NCBI RefSeq assembly: GCF_054482525.1
Contig: NZ_CM137006.1
Length of the DNA stretch: 64,000 nt
Reading direction: 5' to 3' (one strand)
Shown here: positions 19,672 through 30,825 of the stretch, piece by piece
Position numbering within the stretch: position 1 is the stretch's first letter
How the letters are laid out: each line of letters opens with the position of its first letter
Notes under the pieces: generated by a model
What the model saw: only the letters and a program-made list of their open reading frames with translations
What the model was told of the DNA's origin: nothing
The model's database searches: none
Made by a program: the position numbers and the translations under genes

Positions 19672-19974
19672 TCATTGTGTACCCATTGATGTTCTTTTAT
19701 ATACCCTCAATACCCGTTTCATCGCGGCACTCTGGCGACACTCCTTAAAAATCAGATTCGTGCTCACCTTTCCTTCCCGTTCTTCTCTGGTAGCGAACCG
19801 GTAATACACCGTTCGCCAGACCTTACCATCAACGACCAGGATTCCTGCCCGCGCCATTTTAGCCGCAGCCTGATTTATGCTGGTTACGGTTGCGCCTGTT
19901 ACCGCGGCAACGTCCTGTGCACAGAAGCTCTTATGCGTCCCCAGGTAATGAATAATTGCCTCTTTGCCCGTCAT
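19672..19974 (-). CDS. ren: Ren (Rex-exclusion escape) protein
   Basis: MTGKEAIIHYLGTH.SFCA.DVAA.TGATVTSINQAAAKMARAG... reads as lambda Ren. Confidence 0.85.
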   Translation of the reverse strand: MTGKEAIIHYLGTHKSFCAQDVAAVTGATVTSINQAAAKMARAGILVVDGKVWRTVYYRFATREEREGKVSTNLIFKECRQSAAMKRVLRVYKRTSMGTQ

Positions 19975-20672
19975 ACGCTTGCTCCTTTCAGTCCGAACTT
20001 AGCTTTGATTTCTGCGATCTTCGCCAGAGCCTGTGCACGATTTAGAGGTCTACCGCCCATGACAGGAAGTTGTTTTACTGGTTCAGGGATCGCCTCACCA
20101 CGGTTAATTCTCGCAGTCATATGGACAAGCTCATCTGCGGCCTTACGGCGTAATTCCGCATCAGTAAGCGCATTGGCCCGCATGTTCTGATACAGGTTGG
20201 TAACCAGCCAGTAGTGCGCGTTTGATTTCCACGGATAAGACTCCGCATCCGGATACAGGCCTCGCTTCCGGCAATACTCGTAAACCATATCAACCAGCTC
20301 GCTGACGTTTGGCAGTCCGGCGATAACGGATGCTTCTTCCCGGCACCATGCAACAAACTGCCCGGGTGATGGCAGAAATGGTCGATTCTGCCGACGGGCT
20401 ACGCGCATTCCTGCGTTAACCTGTTCCATTGTGGTGATCCCGTTTTCCCGGAAAGCCAGAACCCACTGGCGGCGGATTTCGTTCAGTTCGTTCTGGTCAC
20501 GGTTAGCCAGACTCGCCGGGAAAGTTGCCAGTAACTGGCTGAACACACCGTTGATGATCTGCGCTACCTGCTGTACCTGCGGCTTTTCGTCGTACTGTTC
20601 CGGCATGTTGTTGGCGATCCGGCGCATCTGCTCACGGTCAAAGTTAACCATCTGTGCGGCGATGTTTTTCAT
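19971..20672 (-). CDS. P: Replication protein P (DnaB helicase loader)
   Basis: 233 aa, MKNIAAQMVNFDREQMRRIANNMPEQYDEKPQVQQVAQIINGV..., reads as lambda P. Confidence 0.93.
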   Translation of the reverse strand: MKNIAAQMVNFDREQMRRIANNMPEQYDEKPQVQQVAQIINGVFSQLLATFPASLANRDQNELNEIRRQWVLAFRENGITTMEQVNAGMRVARRQNRPFLPSPGQFVAWCREEASVIAGLPNVSELVDMVYEYCRKRGLYPDAESYPWKSNAHYWLVTNLYQNMRANALTDAELRRKAADELVHMTARINRGEAIPEPVKQLPVMGGRPLNRAQALAKIAEIKAKFGLKGASV

Positions 20673-21598
20673 AGCTCCACCCCGTAAATCCAGTCAGTGT
20701 TCGTCAGGTCGAATTTTGGTTTGCCGGCTGTCACGCCAGCCTGTTGCTTGTTACGGTTGATTTCGAGTTGGGTCCACTTGTCGCGGAGTTTGGCCGGACT
20801 TAGCACGTTACCGGACCAGAAGTTGTCCTGGCATGCCCAGCGGAACAGCACGCACATGTCGCGGTGGTTACGTCCGTCACGTTCACGCATCAGGCGGATA
20901 TCGTTAGCCCACCCTGCAAAATTCGGTTTTCTGGCTGATGGCGCGATGGTCTTCACCATGTCAAACATCCACTCTGCGGCGGTCAGGTCTTCTGCTGTCC
21001 CCCACTTTCTGCCGCTCTGAATTGCAGCATCTGGTTTCACCACAGGAAGATCCTTTTCTGGTTGGTCAGAGGATTCTCCAGAATTCTCGGACGAAAAAGG
21101 TTTTATATTGTCTTTTGTTAGTTTGTCTTTTGTGTTTACCTGATTCGGGTAAACGCCTTTACCTGATTTGGGTAAACTTTTCTTACCTGATTCAGGTAAA
21201 TTTACCTCTTTCAGGTAAACTTTATTTTTCTTACCTGATTCGGGTAATGTTGACCATTCACTGACCACATTATTAATACCGATATTCCGCCCGCTCTGAA
21301 TCAAAATCCCACGCTTTACCAGAACACTTTTTGCAGCAGAACACTTGTGCGGCAATATCCCGGTCAATTCGGACAGTTGCTCGTTGCTCACCCAATCCAG
21401 TTTTTTATTAAAGCCATATGTTTTGCGCATGACAGCCAGGAAGACCAGAAGCTGGTGCTGTGTTAATCCGGCCAGCATCACAGCTTCCAGCAACTCATTT
21501 GCAATGCGCGTATAACCATCATCGAGATCTGCCACGCGCGGCTCCTTTTGTGCCGCATCCGGCACAGGAAAATTGAATATCTCAGCAGTGTTTGCCAT
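20669..21598 (-). CDS. O: Replication initiator O (lambda O-like variant)
   Basis: N-terminal domain O-like (...VADLDDGY.R......LEA...); contains the iteron array; start trimmed to first ATG (Met31); the upstream TTG/GTG alternative is not excluded. Confidence 0.8.
   Translation of the reverse strand: MANTAEIFNFPVPDAAQKEPRVADLDDGYTRIANELLEAVMLAGLTQHQLLVFLAVMRKTYGFNKKLDWVSNEQLSELTGILPHKCSAAKSVLVKRGILIQSGRNIGINNVVSEWSTLPESGKKNKVYLKEVNLPESGKKSLPKSGKGVYPNQVNTKDKLTKDNIKPFSSENSGESSDQPEKDLPVVKPDAAIQSGRKWGTAEDLTAAEWMFDMVKTIAPSARKPNFAGWANDIRLMRERDGRNHRDMCVLFRWACQDNFWSGNVLSPAKLRDKWTQLEINRNKQQAGVTAGKPKFDLTNTDWIYGVEL
21136..21248. repeat. Origin of replication iterons: five copies of TTACCTGATTCGGGTAAA-like 18-mers inside the O gene, with adjacent AT-rich stretch
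   Basis: Copies at about 21136, 21159, 21183, 21202 and 21231, each an internal inverted repeat (TTACC...GGTAA); AT-rich run at 21090-21135. Confidence 0.75.
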
Positions 21599-21684
21599 AA
21601 TTCCTCCCGCAATGAGTGTGTTACGATTTGCACCTGAAAGTCGGTTCTGTTCCCGCAGACCGACTTTCGCCATTTTTGAACCTG

Positions 21685-22224
21685 TCATATTGCCCCCAGC
21701 ATGGTGGTTACCATCGCCATCAATGGACCAGCCAGATCCGGGTCCACTCGAAACATCGACACAATGCCTTCACTCATCTCCTTCAGTTTCTGGTGGCGTG
21801 GTGCGTTGAGAATGACCGCCTGCTTTGCCTCACAGAGTTCCTTTTCCATTTCAGCCAGCCGAGCCATGAAGCTATCCTGCTCAACCAGGTGGCCGCGATA
21901 TTCCAGCGGTAGTACCGCCAGAATTGCCGGGGTCAGTTCACGCACGTTATTTCGGTATTTTTCAGAATCGAATTTGTTATCGAGGAAGCGGAACAGCTTC
22001 TGGCGTGCACGGCTGACATCATCAGGGAAATCGATAGTGCCGCCGCCCTGCTCCCGATACTCATTCACAATGAGTGTGGCAACGACATCCTGATTATCTT
22101 CAGCCGACCAGGCGCGGACGGCATCACGGATTTTTTCGTGGCCTGGCACCTGTTTTGTTTGAGAACGATTTATCACCGCAGTCGGGCTAAATCCGCTAGT
22201 CTGTTGGTATGTAAGTGGTTGCAT
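21685..22224 (-). CDS. YdaT-family protein in the cII position
   Basis: 179 aa; segment ...EYREQGGG...TPAILAVLPLEYRGHL... resembles Rac YdaT; position immediately after the cro-like gene. Confidence 0.55.
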   Translation of the reverse strand: MQPLTYQQTSGFSPTAVINRSQTKQVPGHEKIRDAVRAWSAEDNQDVVATLIVNEYREQGGGTIDFPDDVSRARQKLFRFLDNKFDSEKYRNNVRELTPAILAVLPLEYRGHLVEQDSFMARLAEMEKELCEAKQAVILNAPRHQKLKEMSEGIVSMFRVDPDLAGPLMAMVTTMLGAI

Positions 22225-22293
22225 AATTGACTCCTTTAGTTTGAATTGACTGTTAAGTTGATTGCTTATTGTTAAAGAGCGTGAAATGGAAAT

Positions 22294-22524
22294 TTAAGCT
22301 GCGTTCTTTTCGGTGTGTGGAAACAACTTCGGAAGATCCGGGCGAATCTGGTATGCCTTCACTACTCCACCAGTAGCCGTAACAATGCTGCCGACATGTT
22401 CAGGGGATACCTTTGCTTTGTTGTGAAGCCACTTATAGACGGCCTGCTGTGAAACTTCGCAGGCAGCGCCCAGTTTCTTTTGTGAACCAACGATATTGAT
22501 CGCTGTTTTGATAGCTGGATTCAT
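22294..22524 (-). CDS. Cro-like HTH regulator (YdaS type)
   Basis: 76 aa, HTH ...KKLGAACEVSQQAVYKWLHNK...; divergent from the cI-like gene. Confidence 0.7.
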   Translation of the reverse strand: MNPAIKTAINIVGSQKKLGAACEVSQQAVYKWLHNKAKVSPEHVGSIVTATGGVVKAYQIRPDLPKLFPHTEKNAA

Positions 22525-22539
22525 AACAACCTCCGTGGT

Positions 22540-22620
22540 TAATTTGAATCAAGATTAAAACTATGGTTGTTTTTAGTCAACAACCATTTTCGTTTGATGG
22601 AATAAAACCTTGGTTGTACA
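22540..22620. promoter_or_regulatory. Right operator/promoter region (OR-like) between divergent cro-like and cI-like genes
   Basis: Palindrome ATGGTTGTT-N7-AACAACCAT at 22563-22587 and related AACTATGGTT / CCTTGGTTGT half-sites; the same motif family recurs at 24335-24390. Confidence 0.5.
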
Positions 22621-22628
22621 TTTGGACT

Positions 22629-23318
22629 ATGAAAACAACACTCTCAGAAAGACTTAAAGAAGCCAGATTAGCGCGAGGCCTTACACAAAAGGCGCTTGGG
22701 GATTTGGTCGGGGTTAGCCAAGCTGCTATTCAGAAAATCGAAACAGGGAAAGCTAACCAAACAACTAAAATCGTGGAGATCGCGAACGCTTTGGGTGTGC
22801 GCGCAGAATGGTTATCTTCTGGCGTTGGAAATATGTCAGACAGTACAGTGCAACCAATACAATCAACTGTCAGCCATTCCAAATACTTTAAGATTGACGT
22901 TCTTGATATAGAAGTGAGTGCCGGGCCGGGAGTCATCAACCGTGAATTTGTAGAAGTTCTACGCTCGGTTGAGTACTCGTTTGACGATGCTCGTCACATG
23001 TTCGATGGCAGGAAGGCGGAAAATATCCGCATCATTAACGTGCGTGGTGACAGCATGTCAGGAACGATCGAACCAGGTGATCTGCTGTTCGTTGATATCA
23101 CGGTTAAATCTTTCGACGGTGATGGTATCTATGCGTTTCTGTACGACGACACAGCCCATGTAAAGCGCCTGCAAATGATGAAAGATAAGCTACTGGTTAT
23201 CTCTGATAACAAGAGCTACTCACCGTGGGACCCGATCGAGAAAGACGAGATGAACCGGGTGTTCATTTTCGGGAAGGTTATTGGCAGTATGCCGCAGACG
23301 TATAGGAAACACGGATAA
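22629..23318 (+). CDS. Prophage repressor, LexA/S24 peptidase type with N-terminal HTH
   Basis: MKTTLSERLKEARLARGLTQKALGDLVGVSQAAIQKIETG... (HTH); C-terminal ...NVRGDSMSGTIEPGDLLFVD...HVKRL... (S24 Ser/Lys motifs); trimmed to first ATG. Confidence 0.8.
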   Translation: MKTTLSERLKEARLARGLTQKALGDLVGVSQAAIQKIETGKANQTTKIVEIANALGVRAEWLSSGVGNMSDSTVQPIQSTVSHSKYFKIDVLDIEVSAGPGVINREFVEVLRSVEYSFDDARHMFDGRKAENIRIINVRGDSMSGTIEPGDLLFVDITVKSFDGDGIYAFLYDDTAHVKRLQMMKDKLLVISDNKSYSPWDPIEKDEMNRVFIFGKVIGSMPQTYRKHG

Positions 23319-23397
23319 TCAGCTGCGTGCTGATGAGGCTTTTGGGTAATGCGCTGAAAGAATTCTTTATAAAAATAACATTACGGGAAAGGCAAAA

Positions 23398-23667
23398 ATG
23401 AGTGATAAAAAACTTATAAAAAAATCAAATAACTGTGTAGATGCATATGCTGATGCATTTGGATATTCATCTTTTGGGGAAGATGACGATCGCTTAGGCT
23501 CCATATCTTTCTTTCAGCATGTTACAGAATGGGGCGCTGATGGTAGTAATGACACTGAAAACGTAAAGTACAACATTGCAACAATTCGCATGACGGAAGA
23601 TTTAATGCTTAAACTCGCTGACTTTATTCGCGATCAGCATGATAGAGCTAAAACCAATAAGTCATAA
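23398..23667 (+). CDS. Hypothetical acidic protein (89 aa), first gene of the repressor-downstream moron
   Basis: ATG start with upstream AAAGG; no family recognised; C-terminal KYNIATIRMTEDLMLKLADFIR is reminiscent of a ribbon-helix-helix strand-helix. Confidence 0.5.
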   Translation: MSDKKLIKKSNNCVDAYADAFGYSSFGEDDDRLGSISFFQHVTEWGADGSNDTENVKYNIATIRMTEDLMLKLADFIRDQHDRAKTNKS

Positions 23668-23675
23668 TATTAACA

Positions 23676-24116
23676 ATGAAACACGGTTATTACGAAGCTC
23701 CAAACCTAACTGAAAAGCTTGAACAAGCGGCAAGATCATCATCTTTGCACACTGCAGCATTTTCTCAATCAGCTGGTATGTCTGGCGGTAATGTACCTAT
23801 GCTACAATCAAGTGGTAGCGGTGGCTCTGGGAGTAATAATGTGCTTGAATCGAAAGTTGCAAAGCTTGAGTCTGATGTGTCCTATATCCGACGTGACGTT
23901 GATGAGCTTAAGACAGATGTCAAATCTATCGACAGAAACATGATCGCTGTTCTGGAGCGACTCGATTCAATAAAAGATTCACTAGCCAAAAAACCCTCCA
24001 TCGATGCTGTCGATAGAAAGATTTCAGACGCAAAGCTTGCGGTATTGCTTGGTGTTCCAGCAATCATCGCTGCAGGAACAGGTCTTTATAAGCTATCAAT
24101 GTACTTTTTTCTTTAG
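23676..24116 (+). CDS. Hypothetical coiled-coil protein with C-terminal membrane anchor (146 aa)
   Basis: 8-bp gap after upstream gene; Gly/Ser-rich linker (SSGSGGSGSNN), charged heptad-like stretch, C-terminal hydrophobic helix LAVLLGVPAIIAAGTGLY; no family recognised. Confidence 0.5.
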   Translation: MKHGYYEAPNLTEKLEQAARSSSLHTAAFSQSAGMSGGNVPMLQSSGSGGSGSNNVLESKVAKLESDVSYIRRDVDELKTDVKSIDRNMIAVLERLDSIKDSLAKKPSIDAVDRKISDAKLAVLLGVPAIIAAGTGLYKLSMYFFL

Positions 24117-24191
24117 TGCTTAAGAAACTGCTCGCCACCTTGCATTACGCAAAGCGATTTTTCATTCCCTATTACCCTTTCTTATCCATAT

Positions 24192-24222
24192 AAACCCGGC
24201 CCCAGTGCCGGGTTTTCTTTTG
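24192..24222 (+). terminator. Intrinsic terminator closing the repressor-moron operon
   Basis: AACCCGGC-CCCAGT-GCCGGGTT followed by TTCTTTT. Confidence 0.65.
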
Positions 24223-24334
24223 CCTCCCCTCATCACACAAACCGTTCAAAAAACCACCACGACCTCGCTTCAGTTATCGCTATGCGATGCAAGTCACAAA
24301 ATAAATCCATCTTAAATACAACCAGTTATATCTA

Positions 24335-24390
24335 AAACAACCAATAAAACAACTTTTGTTGTTGACGATAAAACAACTATGGTTTTAAAT
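24335..24390. promoter_or_regulatory. Left operator/promoter region (OL/pL-like)
   Basis: AACAACCAAT, palindrome ACAACTTTTGTTGT and AACTATGGTT (same motif as the OR region); candidate -35 TTGACG, 17-bp spacer, -10 TTAAAT reading rightward. Confidence 0.45.
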
Positions 24391-24583
24391 GAATTCATCG
24401 CAACAACACAACGATACGGCAATCACCTGATTCACCGTTGCGATGACCGCTTAGATCCGCAGCTTGAATTTCAGCAGGCTCCGGGGAGTGCGAGGGGTGA
24501 AGCGGACGCGTGAACGTCGGTGTGACCAGCTGAAATCAACTCAACACTTCATACCTCAGTCGCTTCAACGAGGCGACTTAGTT

Positions 24584-24874
24584 ATGACAACCGGCGGCCA
24601 TCCACCGCCTGAATACGCGCAGAAGTCTCTATATGTTCAGCAGCCCAGCTTACGGGCAGGAGTTTTTATGGTTCATCAACATTACGGAACGCAGACCGTT
24701 AATCGAGGTGCGGTCATGCCAGGAATGCTGGTCAAACACAAAGATGGTACCTGGACTGCATCAGCTAATTTACGCGGACGGCTTTATCTGCATCGCGGCA
24801 TCGAGCGCACTTATACCCGTGACTTGCTCGTGGAAGTTTTTCTCGACGGGCGCGGCAACGGTCTGAATCACTAA
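24584..24874 (+). CDS. Hypothetical early-left protein (96 aa from first ATG)
   Basis: Only ORF between pL-like promoter and gam; track ORF starts at TTG 24464 with an Arg-rich stretch (GVKRTRERR) upstream of the first ATG; no similarity to lambda N, kil or cIII recognised. Confidence 0.35.
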   Translation: MTTGGHPPPEYAQKSLYVQQPSLRAGVFMVHQHYGTQTVNRGAVMPGMLVKHKDGTWTASANLRGRLYLHRGIERTYTRDLLVEVFLDGRGNGLNH

Positions 24875-24949
24875 TCCCCTTTCCTGTTTACCTAATCAGC
24901 CTGGCATTTCGCGGGCGATATTTTCACAGCCATTTTCAGGAGTTCAGCC

Positions 24950-25246
24950 ATGAACGCTTATTACATTCAGGATCGTCTTGAGGCTCAGAGCTGGGCGCGT
25001 CACTACCAGCAGATCGCCCATGAAGAGAAAGAGGCAGAACTGGCAGACGACATGGAAAAAGGCCTGCCCCAGCACCTGTTTGAATCGCTATGCATCGATC
25101 ATTTGCAACGCCACGGGGCCAGCAAAAAAGCCATTACCCGTGCGTTTGATGACGATGTTGAGTTTCAGGAGCGCATGGCAGAACACATCCGGTACATGGT
25201 TGAAACCATTGCTCACCACCAGGTTGATATTGATTCAGAGGTATAA
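24950..25246 (+). CDS. gam: Gam, RecBCD inhibitor (short form)
   Basis: 98 aa, [21 protein letters not shown]...; reads as lambda GamS; upstream in-frame stop prevents a long form. Confidence 0.9.
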
Positions 25247-28092: not shown

Positions 28093-28329
28093 ATGTCTCG
28101 ACTAATCACTTTACAGGACTGGGCTAAAGAAGAATTTGGGGACTTAGCACCAAGTGAGCGAGTTCTGAAAAAATACGCGCAAGGGAAAATGATGGCCCCA
28201 CCCGCTATAAAAGTTGGTCGCTACTGGATGATTGACCGAAATTCCCGTTTTGTAGGAACGCTTGCAGAACCGCAACTCCCAATAAACGCAAACCCAAAAC
28301 TCCAACGGATAATCGCTGATGGCTGCTAG
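28093..28329 (+). CDS. xis: Excisionase (Xis-like)
   Basis: 78 aa; N-terminus MSRLITLQDW... parallels lambda Xis MYLTLQEW...; AGGAGG RBS; 3' end overlaps int start. Confidence 0.7.
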   Translation: MSRLITLQDWAKEEFGDLAPSERVLKKYAQGKMMAPPAIKVGRYWMIDRNSRFVGTLAEPQLPINANPKLQRIIADGC

Positions 28330-29461
28330 ACCCCGATCTCACAAAATCTCTATACCCAATTTATATTGCAAATTAGATAAGCGAACCGGAAAGGTATATT
28401 GGCAATACAAACATCCACTATCCGGTCGTTTTCATAGCTTAGGAACTGATGAGAATGAAGCAAAACAAGTTGCTACTGAAGCAAATACCATTATTGCTGA
28501 ACAACGTACCCGACAAATATTAAGCGTCAATGAGCGTCTAGAAAGAATGAAAGGCAGGCGCTCAGACATTACGGTGACAGAATGGCTTGATAAATATATT
28601 TCTATCCAGGAGGACAGGCTGCAACATAATGAACTAAAACCCAACTCCTATCGGCAAAAAGGTAAACCCATTCGTCTTTTCCGTGAGCATTGTGGAATGC
28701 AACACCTCAAGGATATTACCGCACTTGATATTGCCGAAATAATTGATGCTGTAAAGGCTGAAGGTCATAACAGGATGGCGCAAGTCGTGAGAATGGTGTT
28801 GATCGACGTCTTCAAAGAAGCACAACACGCAGGACATGTTCCGCCAGGATTTAACCCAGCGCAGGCAACAAAACAACCGCGAAATCGAGTAAACCGCCAA
28901 AGATTATCACTGCCCGAATGGCAGGCAATATTTGAAAGCATAAGCAGACGGCAGCCCTATTTAAAATGCGGCATGCTACTTGCTCTTGTTACTGGACAAC
29001 GTTTAGGCGATATCTGCAATTTGAAATTCTCTGATATATGGGACGACATGTTGCACATTACTCAGGAAAAAACCGGTTCAAAACTTGCTATTCCGCTTAG
29101 CCTGAAATGCGATGCTCTGAATATTACCCTTCGTGAAGTTATATCTCAGTGCAGGGATGCTGTTGTTAGTAAATATCTGGTCCATTACCGTCACACTACC
29201 TCTCAAGCAAACAGAGGAGACCAGGTTTCTGCAAATACTCTTACAACGGCTTTTAAAAAGGCCAGGGAAAAATGTGGCATAAAATGGGAGCCAGGAACTG
29301 CGCCCACATTTCATGAGCAGCGATCTCTGTCAGAACGGTTATATCGGGAACAGGGTCTGGATACGCAAAAGTTGTTAGGTCATAAATCCAGAAAAATGAC
29401 CGACCGATACAATGATGATCGTGGTAAAGACTGGATTATCGTAGATATCAAAACAGCATAG
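28319..29461 (+). CDS. int: Tyrosine integrase, lambda Int family
   Basis: 380 aa; motifs shared with lambda Int (RSHK near N-terminus, ...VTGQRLGDICNLKFSDI..., ...TFHEQRSLSERLY..., ...LLGHKS...RY.DDRG..W); adjacent to the attachment junction. Confidence 0.9.
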   Translation: MAARPRSHKISIPNLYCKLDKRTGKVYWQYKHPLSGRFHSLGTDENEAKQVATEANTIIAEQRTRQILSVNERLERMKGRRSDITVTEWLDKYISIQEDRLQHNELKPNSYRQKGKPIRLFREHCGMQHLKDITALDIAEIIDAVKAEGHNRMAQVVRMVLIDVFKEAQHAGHVPPGFNPAQATKQPRNRVNRQRLSLPEWQAIFESISRRQPYLKCGMLLALVTGQRLGDICNLKFSDIWDDMLHITQEKTGSKLAIPLSLKCDALNITLREVISQCRDAVVSKYLVHYRHTTSQANRGDQVSANTLTTAFKKAREKCGIKWEPGTAPTFHEQRSLSERLYREQGLDTQKLLGHKSRKMTDRYNDDRGKDWIIVDIKTA

Positions 29462-29574: not shown

Positions 29575-30825
29575 TTACATATTCTTGATGATCGCGTCAC
29601 CAAACTCTGAACATTTCAGCAGTTTAGCGCCTTCCATCAGACGTTCGAAGTCATAGGTTACAGTCTTGGCGTTGATCGCGCCTTCCATACCTTTAACAAT
29701 CAGGTCTGCGGCTTCAGTCCAGCCCATATGGCGCAGCATCATCTCAGCGGAGAGAATAATAGAGCCTGGGTTTACTTTGTCCTGACCGGCATATTTCGGC
29801 GCAGTACCGTGGGTGGCTTCAAACAGGGCGCATTCGTCACCGATGTTTGCGCCTGGGGCGATACCGATACCGCCGACCTGTGCAGCCAGAGCGTCAGAAA
29901 TGTAGTCACCGTTCAGGTTCATACAGGCGATAACATCATATTCAGCCGGACGCAGCAGAATCTGTTGCAGGAATGCATCAGCAATCACGTCTTTAATGAC
30001 GATCTCTTTGCCGGTATTCGGATTTTTAACTTTCAGCCACGGGCCGCCGTCGATCAGTTCACCGCCAAACTCTTCACGCGCCAGCTGGTAGCCCCAGTCT
30101 TTAAACGCGCCTTCGGTGAATTTCATGATGTTGCCTTTGTGAACCAGGGTCACAGAGTCACGATCGTTAGCAATTGCGTATTCGATCGCTGCACGAACCA
30201 GACGTTTGGTGCCTTCTTCAGAACACGGCTTAATACCGATGCCGCAATGTTCCGGGAAGCGAATTTTCTTCACACCCATCTCTTCACGCAGGAATTTAAT
30301 CACTTTCTCAGCGTCGGCAGAGTCTGCTTTCCATTCGATACCCGCATAAATGTCTTCCGAGTTTTCACGGAAGATAACCATATCGGTCAGTTCAGGGTGT
30401 TTAACCGGGCTTGGGGTGCCCTGGTAGTAACGTACCGGACGCAGGCAGATATAGAGATCCAGCTCCTGGCGCAGGGCAACGTTCAGAGAGCGAATACCGC
30501 CACCAACCGGAGTGGTCAGCGGGCCTTTGATGGCAACGCGATATTCACGAATCAGATCAAGGGTTTCAGCAGGTAGCCAGACATCCTGACCATAAACCTG
30601 TGTGGATTTTTCACCGGTGTAAATTTCCATCCAGGAGATTTTACGCTCGCCTTTATAGGCTTTCTCGACTGCAGCGTCGACCACTTTCAGCATGGCTGGG
30701 GTTACATCTACACCGATTCCATCACCTTCAATGTAAGGGATAATCGGATTTTCAGGAACGTTGAGTTTGCCGTTTTGCAGGGTGATCTTCTTGCCTTGTG
30801 CCGGAACAACTACTTTACTTTCCAT
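29575..30825 (-). CDS. icd: Isocitrate dehydrogenase (NADP), 3' end contributed by the prophage
   Basis: 416 aa, [38 protein letters not shown]..., ends ...FGDAIIKNM. Confidence 0.95.

Follow-up and report, generated by a model that had tools for sequence, protein, structure and literature searches.

A repressor-linked gene pair of a lambdoid prophage with a constant membrane-anchored protein and exchangeable partners: a candidate phage-exclusion module

What does a lambdoid prophage carry in the place that lambda gives to rexA and rexB, and is that cargo directed against other phages? The question is raised by a 64,000-nucleotide stretch of contig NZ_CM137006.1 (RefSeq assembly GCF_054482525.1; hereafter the window), in which two plus-strand genes follow the cI-type repressor of a lambdoid prophage of E. 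coli: gene A (23398-23667), coding for an acidic cytoplasmic protein of 89 aa, and gene B (23676-24116), coding for a predicted tail-anchored, coiled-coil protein of the inner membrane of 146 aa. A sequence-only reading of this DNA had described the pair as an unrecognised two-gene cassette, and both open reading frames (ORFs) are present as it gave them, 8 nt apart. Our analysis indicates that A-B is very probably a lysogen-expressed accessory module of the prophage, and we consider the chances about even that it protects the lysogen against other phages, either by abortive infection or by superinfection exclusion.

The order cI, A, B, terminator and OL/PL mirrors that of cI-rexA-rexB-tIMM in lambda, and the assignment of the pair to the rexAB slot is therefore upheld. 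The repressor, which combines a helix-turn-helix (HTH) with an S24 peptidase (22563-23318, + strand; PHROG 4 'transcriptional repressor', E 5e-73), starts at 22629 in its RefSeq relatives (229 aa; annotated there as 'S24 family peptidase', WP_000858975.1). Its stop is separated from gene A by 79 nt (23319-23397), a spacer that has the ribosome-binding site (RBS) GGAAAGG ahead of the A start, contains the start of the diverged module at ~23350 and returned no terminator-like site in our terminator scan. The same scan ranked first the intrinsic terminator that ends the repressor-A-B unit (24192-24222, + strand), made of a 9-bp stem with 6 G-C pairs (24192-24215) and a T-run, as had been predicted, just ahead of the operator-like sites at 24348-24387; sites within gene B were weaker and several of them lay on the opposite strand. 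Scanning for promoters in the window, and likewise in the tail-gene context described below, revealed none that would convincingly serve A or B separately. A weak sigma-70-like site (ATGATA-18-CATAAT, 9/12 matches; 23639-23668) is located at the 3' end of A just ahead of B, a position that recalls lambda PLIT, but sigma-70-like sites are fewer in this region than in shuffled controls.

That the pair behaves as a cassette is seen most directly by comparison with an O26 prophage encoding the identical repressor protein, where DNA identity is 98-100% up to ~23300, drops to 50-88% over 23350-24250 and returns to 96-100% thereafter. So sharp a drop within matching backbones marks the A-B pair as a discrete exchangeable allele or module. 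GC content is 0.38-0.44 over 23300-24350 against 0.46-0.55 further out, but since the repressor gene is itself low (0.42-0.48), the AT-richness noted in the sequence-only reading is real but modest. The 901-bp cassette was found in 200 of 5426 complete E. coli genomes, in one copy each and always on the chromosome, and its alleles fall into a group of 49 genomes at >=95% identity and a second of 151 at 80-90%, the latter including O26 and O111 enterohaemorrhagic E. coli (EHEC) strains and SE11. The exact A and exact B proteins (WP_001280883.1 and WP_023140623.1; O26 alleles WP_000066829.1 and WP_012565042.1) each occur on at least 1000 contigs, and both genes are annotated 'hypothetical' everywhere.

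A survey of the family, comprising 55 IMG/VR loci together with loci from assemblies, placed the module at three kinds of prophage position. At the first it immediately follows the gene of a repressor, which may be of at least two unrelated kinds (S24 proteins of 161-251 aa, or Phage_CI_repr proteins of 155 aa). At the second it overlaps or abuts mnt in P22-like immI regions (phage UPF_BP1 and loci L021 and L073), where it replaces orf59a and sieA in the order mnt-A-B with overlapping stop and start codons; UPF_BP1 was recovered by protein-mode search, the nucleotide search of the phage collection having returned nothing. At the third it forms an insert in lambda-like prophages, read from the opposite strand and flanked by tail genes K and I/J (L070 3001-4354; L032-L035), where it adjoins a lipoprotein gene of 113-126 aa. 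The first two of these are slots already known to be expressed in lysogens; the third has the look of an independent insertion. Features of an accessory insert are found together in the copy in the window: discrete boundaries, siblings with an empty slot, a terminator and a deviating GC content. The mnt-gene 16 position invites comparison with P22 SieA, which like the A-B pair there belongs to the inner-membrane proteins of the lysogen, but SieA is a single protein of 164 aa; by BLASTP the best alignment of B to SieA had E 1.7 and A gave none. The paper on P22 SieA does not discuss alternative cargo at that locus.

The position behind the repressor is used far more widely than by A-B. The repressor gene was matched over >=80% of its length in ~1519 E. 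coli genomes, ~7.5x more than carry the cassette, and we sampled the slot at 13 sibling loci with the same or a near-identical repressor (including L076-L086). It was empty at 4/13 loci and held the A-B cassette, in either allele, at 4/13. The alternative cargo consisted of a DUF7946 protein; a DUF6932 protein with a 311-aa protein (PADLOC PDC-M63A/B, E ~1e-42); a BamE-like lipoprotein; a HipA-like kinase with a DUF3037 protein (PDC-M66A/B); a Ser/Thr kinase with a PP2C phosphatase (PD-T4-6, Stk2 and mad6 profiles, E 1e-34 to 5e-39); and a 353-aa protein with an ASCH-domain protein (PDC-M11A/B, E 3e-133 and 7e-52). The site 3' of the repressor is thus a polymorphic cargo hotspot, and the earlier suggestion of a slot for lysogen cargo gains from finding behind the same repressor protein either nothing, a kinase with its PP2C phosphatase, or PADLOC candidates. 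Of these six alternatives to A-B, four correspond to defence families, known or candidate, while A-B matches none. The kinase, of the type found in 933W Stk and PD-T4-6, is unrelated to A-B in protein and chemistry. In the sibling prophage L084 it takes the place of A-B behind a repressor that is 97% identical at the DNA level, and its presence there marks the slot as a defence hotspot. The 126-aa lipoprotein phrog_3135 (L006 5474-5854; L080 3920-4300), annotated as BamE-like and weakly similar at its N-terminus to the Cor exclusion family, comes after B in prophages of Citrobacter and is the sole content of the slot in one prophage of E. coli.

What had been taken for a two-gene unit is one only in part: the genes are adjacent, but the pairing is not fixed. 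B (phrog_3556, E 4e-54) has 108 homologues at 90% clustering across Enterobacterales (Escherichia, Salmonella, Klebsiella, Citrobacter, Enterobacter, Pantoea, Erwinia, Serratia and Dickeya), while A (phrog_4231) has 15 only. A full-library profile search with the B core returned ~25 true clusters at 50% identity among many coiled-coil false positives, and with so few true members the B family is compact. At every locus with a readable upstream flank B is preceded by a small co-oriented gene, and these genes belong to at least six unrelated partner families: A itself, phrog_12039 (93-106 aa), an 88-aa singleton, the Cys-rich phrog_4293 (119 aa), a second XhlA-like protein, and the large, probably beta-rich phrog_5893 (136-187 aa). 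Partner type and the type of N-terminal tail on B covary strictly, whichever of three C-terminal transmembrane modules B possesses. A, for example, is found with the 'YYE.PNL...SSSLH' tail on transmembrane module i (the window), ii (L073) or iii (UPF_BP1), and the junction between modules is the near-invariant start of the coiled coil, 'MLEARVAKLESDVSYIRRD'. B is therefore the conserved core of the module and A an exchangeable partner, and from the covariation we infer that each partner binds the matching B tail. No relationship of A to c14, another partner family of ~90 aa, emerged from profile-profile comparison. In loci of Klebsiella (L003 5411-5614), Citrobacter (L006 5886-6110) and Salmonella (L010 5294-5500), minus-strand ORFs of 67-74 aa without a Pfam match converge on B from the opposite strand; the motif ...GNVIHKG.LRDAA..VRKGQ is common to the Citrobacter and Salmonella copies, the Klebsiella ORF is a different protein, and the window has no such ORF.

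Within B three parts can be told apart. The N-terminal tail (residues 1-55; 23676-23840) is variable and disordered and ends in a Gly/Ser linker; next comes a coiled coil of seven heptads (residues 57-105; 23844-23990), and then a juxtamembrane KKPS kink with a conserved transmembrane helix (~119-139; 23991-24113). Both the coiled coil and the C-terminal membrane anchor had been proposed from the sequence and stand: all 14 a/d heptad positions of residues 57-105 are L, I, V or M without interruption, and the best 19-residue hydropathy window (residues 119-137, Kyte-Doolittle 1.8) is the only hydrophobic segment of the protein. AlphaFold2 predicts helices at 54-105 (pLDDT, the per-residue confidence, 73-91) and 109-145 with residues 1-53 disordered, and pLDDT in the tail is <50 except in a short helix at residues 11-21. 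Some relatives of B carry an insertion in the coil of exactly 7 residues. Four K/R residues stand just before the hydrophobic segment and only 8 residues follow it, which for a single C-terminal segment argues for a tail-anchored topology with the N-terminus of B in the cytoplasm.

In an alignment of 38 sequences the invariant residues of B (K106, P107, I116, A119, L121, L124, L125, G126, P128 and K139) are concentrated in the juxtamembrane and transmembrane part, and 24001-24100 forms an island of 96-98% identity between two otherwise diverged E. coli alleles. Together these observations indicate that the transmembrane helix of B is more than an anchor. Compared with three diverged alleles at synonymous divergence (dS) of 0.4 to >1, the ratio of nonsynonymous to synonymous change (dN/dS) amounts to 0.06-0.10 in A, 0.11-0.23 in the core of B and 0.30-0.46 in its tail. 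Both A and B are under purifying selection (0.06-0.23 for A and the core of B). The reading frames are open in 21/21 unique variants.

Through its coiled coil B is linked to holin-like proteins of the XhlA type. Two of these, XhlA of the Bacillus prophage PBSX and gp24.1 of phage SPP1, have their transmembrane helix at the C-terminus and are harmless alone and lethal only together with a two-transmembrane holin (PMC6316719). They share with residues 56-146 of B a core of ~90 aa in which an N-terminal coiled coil leads into a single C-terminal transmembrane helix, and the Pfam family of these proteins, PF10779, is matched by the sister variant P0103, which bears transmembrane module ii and shares the B coil at high identity (independent E-value, i-E, 2.8e-5; P0159 0.08). 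The B of the window itself reached E 0.35 over residues 58-102, in the coil only, which is not significant. Weak PHROG similarities to holin, spanin and 'hemolysin' families were also seen (E 0.003-0.16). B departs from XhlA in that its KKPS/transmembrane half is a different, separately conserved module, in that it has an N-terminal tail and a dedicated partner gene besides, and in that it lies in no lysis cassette: in place of the two-transmembrane XhlB holin and an endolysin it has as neighbours a repressor with the partner gene and OL/PL, or else mnt or tail genes.

A further feature of B lies at the linker/coil junction, where every unique family variant has an in-frame ATG and the window a GTG (23841-23843), preceded in the latter by the putative internal RBS GGGAG (23829-23833, + strand); initiation here would give a short B of 91 aa, a form often reported by gene callers. 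A GGAG or GAGG core stands 3-11 nt ahead of the junction start codon in 20/21 unique variants, against 4.3-4.9 expected and a maximum of 12 in 5000 trials of synonymous recoding with E. coli codon usage, and 42% of the Gly codons in the linker are GGA, a codon that is normally rare. Judged from these variants, the internal RBS is a selected feature, and a conserved RBS and start so far above the recoding expectation make it likely that B is made in two forms, the full-length protein and a 91-aa form without the tail. SPP1 gene 24.1 likewise has an in-frame internal start with its own RBS (PMC6316719). The sequence of B thus has what characterises dual-start genes, a conserved in-frame internal start with a suitably spaced RBS. 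Known cases are the lambda S107/S105 holin-antiholin pair and P22 SieB/Esc, in which two in-frame starts yield a long and a short membrane protein, one of which modulates the other. In lambda the S forms differ by 2 residues, whereas those predicted for B would differ by the 55-residue tail.

Protein A is acidic, as had been stated (pI 4.98; 16 D+E versus 12 K+R), no hydrophobic segment was found in its sequence, and it is a small cytoplasmic protein that probably forms dimers. Hidden Markov model (HMM) searches of both proteins, as the sequence-only reading had proposed, returned no characterised defence family among their matches. Pfam, NCBIfam, PADLOC and PDB sequence searches were all empty for A, and in PADLOC B gave coiled-coil noise only (E >=0.006), as its matches outside PHROG to GajA, LmuB, Lpp, FlaC, the tail-needle protein and GCN4 also proved to be. 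Eight representatives of the partner families and the BamE-like lipoprotein following B gave no PADLOC match either, the coiled-coil partner reaching noise level only. The statement that neither protein can be placed in any family needs amending, in that both belong to PHROG families and the B coil is related to the XhlA family; neither phrog_4231 nor phrog_3556 has a known function. No paper in the literature searched, the coverage of which was partial so that an earlier experimental description is possible, names the A/B accessions or their PHROGs, and A and B are not listed in the DefensePredictor supplements.

A genuine swappable module, in a slot of proven anti-phage cargo and without a characterised defence family, presents itself as a candidate phage-exclusion system. 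Several lines of evidence favour this reading: the module occurs at three prophage positions and in a hotspot slot with discrete boundaries; it shows the modularity of conflict systems, with at least six partner families each tied to its own B-tail type; its transmembrane helix is conserved far beyond the needs of an anchor, sister variants hit XhlA, and B contains an internal RBS and start; A and B are under purifying selection; and there is no terminator between cI and A and a strong one after B.

The obvious precedent is lambda RexA/RexB, which likewise lies directly 3' of cI with a terminator before OL/PL and pairs a soluble with an inner-membrane protein. RexA has ~279 aa and RexB four transmembrane segments, so that the two systems differ in the 89-aa size of A and in the single C-terminal transmembrane helix and long cytoplasmic coiled coil of B, which is not a multi-pass protein. 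Neither A nor B had a Rex-named match in PADLOC, NCBIfam or Pfam, RexA/RexB models in PADLOC v2 not having been checked. Mycobacteriophage Sbash, which has a host of a different phylum, encodes in its prophage, next to the repressor, a cytoplasmic and a membrane protein (gp30/gp31) that together abort infection and are Rex-like in function without being Rex homologues. Repressor-linked prophage cargo made of a soluble and a membrane component is therefore already known, and what is new here are protein families that have no characterised member in such a role.

If the exclusion reading is correct, the module might operate as follows. The repressor and A-B are most likely transcribed together in the lysogen, ending at their own terminator. 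The soluble parts of B would all face the cytoplasm, with the seven-heptad coil as an oligomerising element behind a flexible Gly linker, and A may act as a specificity or regulatory subunit by binding the matching tail of B. A, the ratio of long to short B, or both could restrain the coil-oligomerised, XhlA-like effector until infection; B, once released or triggered, would oligomerise and either disturb the inner membrane or cooperate with the holin of the incoming phage. In its broadest form, a widespread modular defence family of Enterobacterales prophages with an XhlA-like two-isoform effector, recognition through exchangeable tail-partner pairs, and holin-like killing or arrest, the proposal is possible but we would not favour it, and any particular trigger and membrane event, drawn as these are by analogy with RexAB, XhlA and gp24.1, should be regarded as doubtful at best.

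Several findings weigh against an anti-phage role. A, B and the partner families have no match in PADLOC v2 (PADLOC-DB v2.0.0), and A and B have none in NCBIfam. Selection on A and B is purifying and not diversifying. B has almost no periplasmic exposure, which speaks against its stopping DNA injection in the classical way, from the outer side of the membrane. Of the four 'defence' neighbours in the hotspot three are PADLOC candidates only, and the slot also receives cargo with no link to defence, namely the BamE-like lipoprotein and the DUF7946 protein. Lastly, an AlphaFold2 model of an A-(G4S)6-B fusion (pTM, the predicted template-modelling score, 0.32) left the tail disordered and A undocked on it; the model offers no confirmation, and binding of partner to tail is thus still what we infer from covariation.

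Among the other explanations the one that survives best, improbable as we hold it to be, is an addiction or stabilisation function resembling that of toxin-antitoxin systems, in which B would be a membrane toxin, A or long B the antidote, and retention of the prophage or cassette the role. The soluble gene comes first and the small membrane gene second, the two are tightly coupled (an 8-nt gap or overlapping stops and starts), B has holin-like relatives, a dual start could supply a built-in antidote, and the cassette acts as a selfish exchangeable module. However, proteins of the XhlA type are non-toxic alone (PMC6316719), and the partners are extremely diverse while the B core is constant, which would be unusual for antitoxins that neutralise a conserved part. 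This explanation also overlaps strongly with abortive infection and does not exclude it.

Somewhat less probable again is a part in the phage's own life cycle, with B as a holin accessory or antiholin-like protein that times lysis or links induction to the state of the membrane, and A as its regulator. The homology of sister variants to XhlA lysis proteins, the likeness of the dual-start motif to holin/antiholin pairs and the weak similarities to holin, spanin and 'hemolysin' PHROGs given above would all fit. The pair, however, is found in the immunity operon or behind mnt and outside the late lysis cassette, and where it enters tail operons it runs against their direction. The cassette is also missing from the majority of prophages that share this repressor and backbone, and is accordingly dispensable for the phage cycle.

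Lower still we rank lysogenic conversion of host physiology, such as virulence or the tolerance of envelope stress, without any action against phages. Non-defence cargo such as the BamE-like lipoprotein does enter these slots, a lipoprotein gene adjoins the cassette in the tail-gene context, and some databases give relatives the name 'hemolysin XhlA'; but that label is inherited from the Pfam name and not from data, A and B lack signal peptides and lie in, or face, the cytoplasm, and the swapping of partners and tails is hard to square with a housekeeping-type function. The notion that A and B are non-functional hitch-hiking ORFs, which draws on the fact that functional annotation was nowhere found, is effectively refuted by the selection analysis (dN/dS 0.06-0.23 at dS 0.6 to >1), and the 21/21 open frames, the homologues in many Enterobacterales genera and the invariant residues of the transmembrane helix also contradict it.

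Should the exclusion or abortive-infection reading of A-B prove true, it would add a new protein family to prophage-encoded immunity, link holin-accessory proteins of the XhlA type to immunity, and provide a compact natural system of exchangeable recognition modules on one membrane effector. Among pathogenic E. coli the family is common, its second allele being carried by the O26 and O111 EHEC lineages, and the hotspot 3' of this very common E. coli prophage repressor could be mined for further systems.

The remainder of the prophage is organised along lambdoid lines, with the PL direction corresponding to the + strand. To the left of the repressor lie, on the - strand, P (19971-20672), O (20669-21688) and a cro-like gene (22294-22524), and between the latter two a YdaT-like gene occupies the cII position. 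The interval between the cro-like gene and the repressor contains an OR-like operator cluster (22525-22594) of three AACAAC-N4-GTTGTT-like sites, with an inverted repeat at 22563-22587. Such sites number 10 in the window against 3.3 expected by chance, with clusters here and at 24348-24387, where a perfect AACAACTTTTGTTGTT site and a second site form the OL-like operators over a PL-like promoter pointing downstream to kil-gam-bet-exo. There follow kil, gam, bet, exo, xis, int and then icd, the names kil, gam, bet and exo being those of the annotation in relatives.

An Rfam search of 22200-25000 gave no match. Between the PL-like promoter and kil (24668-24874) the interval 24390-24667 has no N-like ORF but a leader of ~290 nt with GC-rich hairpins, for example GTCGCTTCAACGAGGCGAC near 24560-24578, and this leader could be a candidate nut- or put-like antitermination element. 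The prophages of relatives hold accessory genes at other places as well, encoding NADAR, phosphoribosyltransferase-like and DGQHR-domain proteins. The integrase gene (28319-29461) adjoins icd (29575-30825, - strand), which places the prophage at the e14/icd attachment site.

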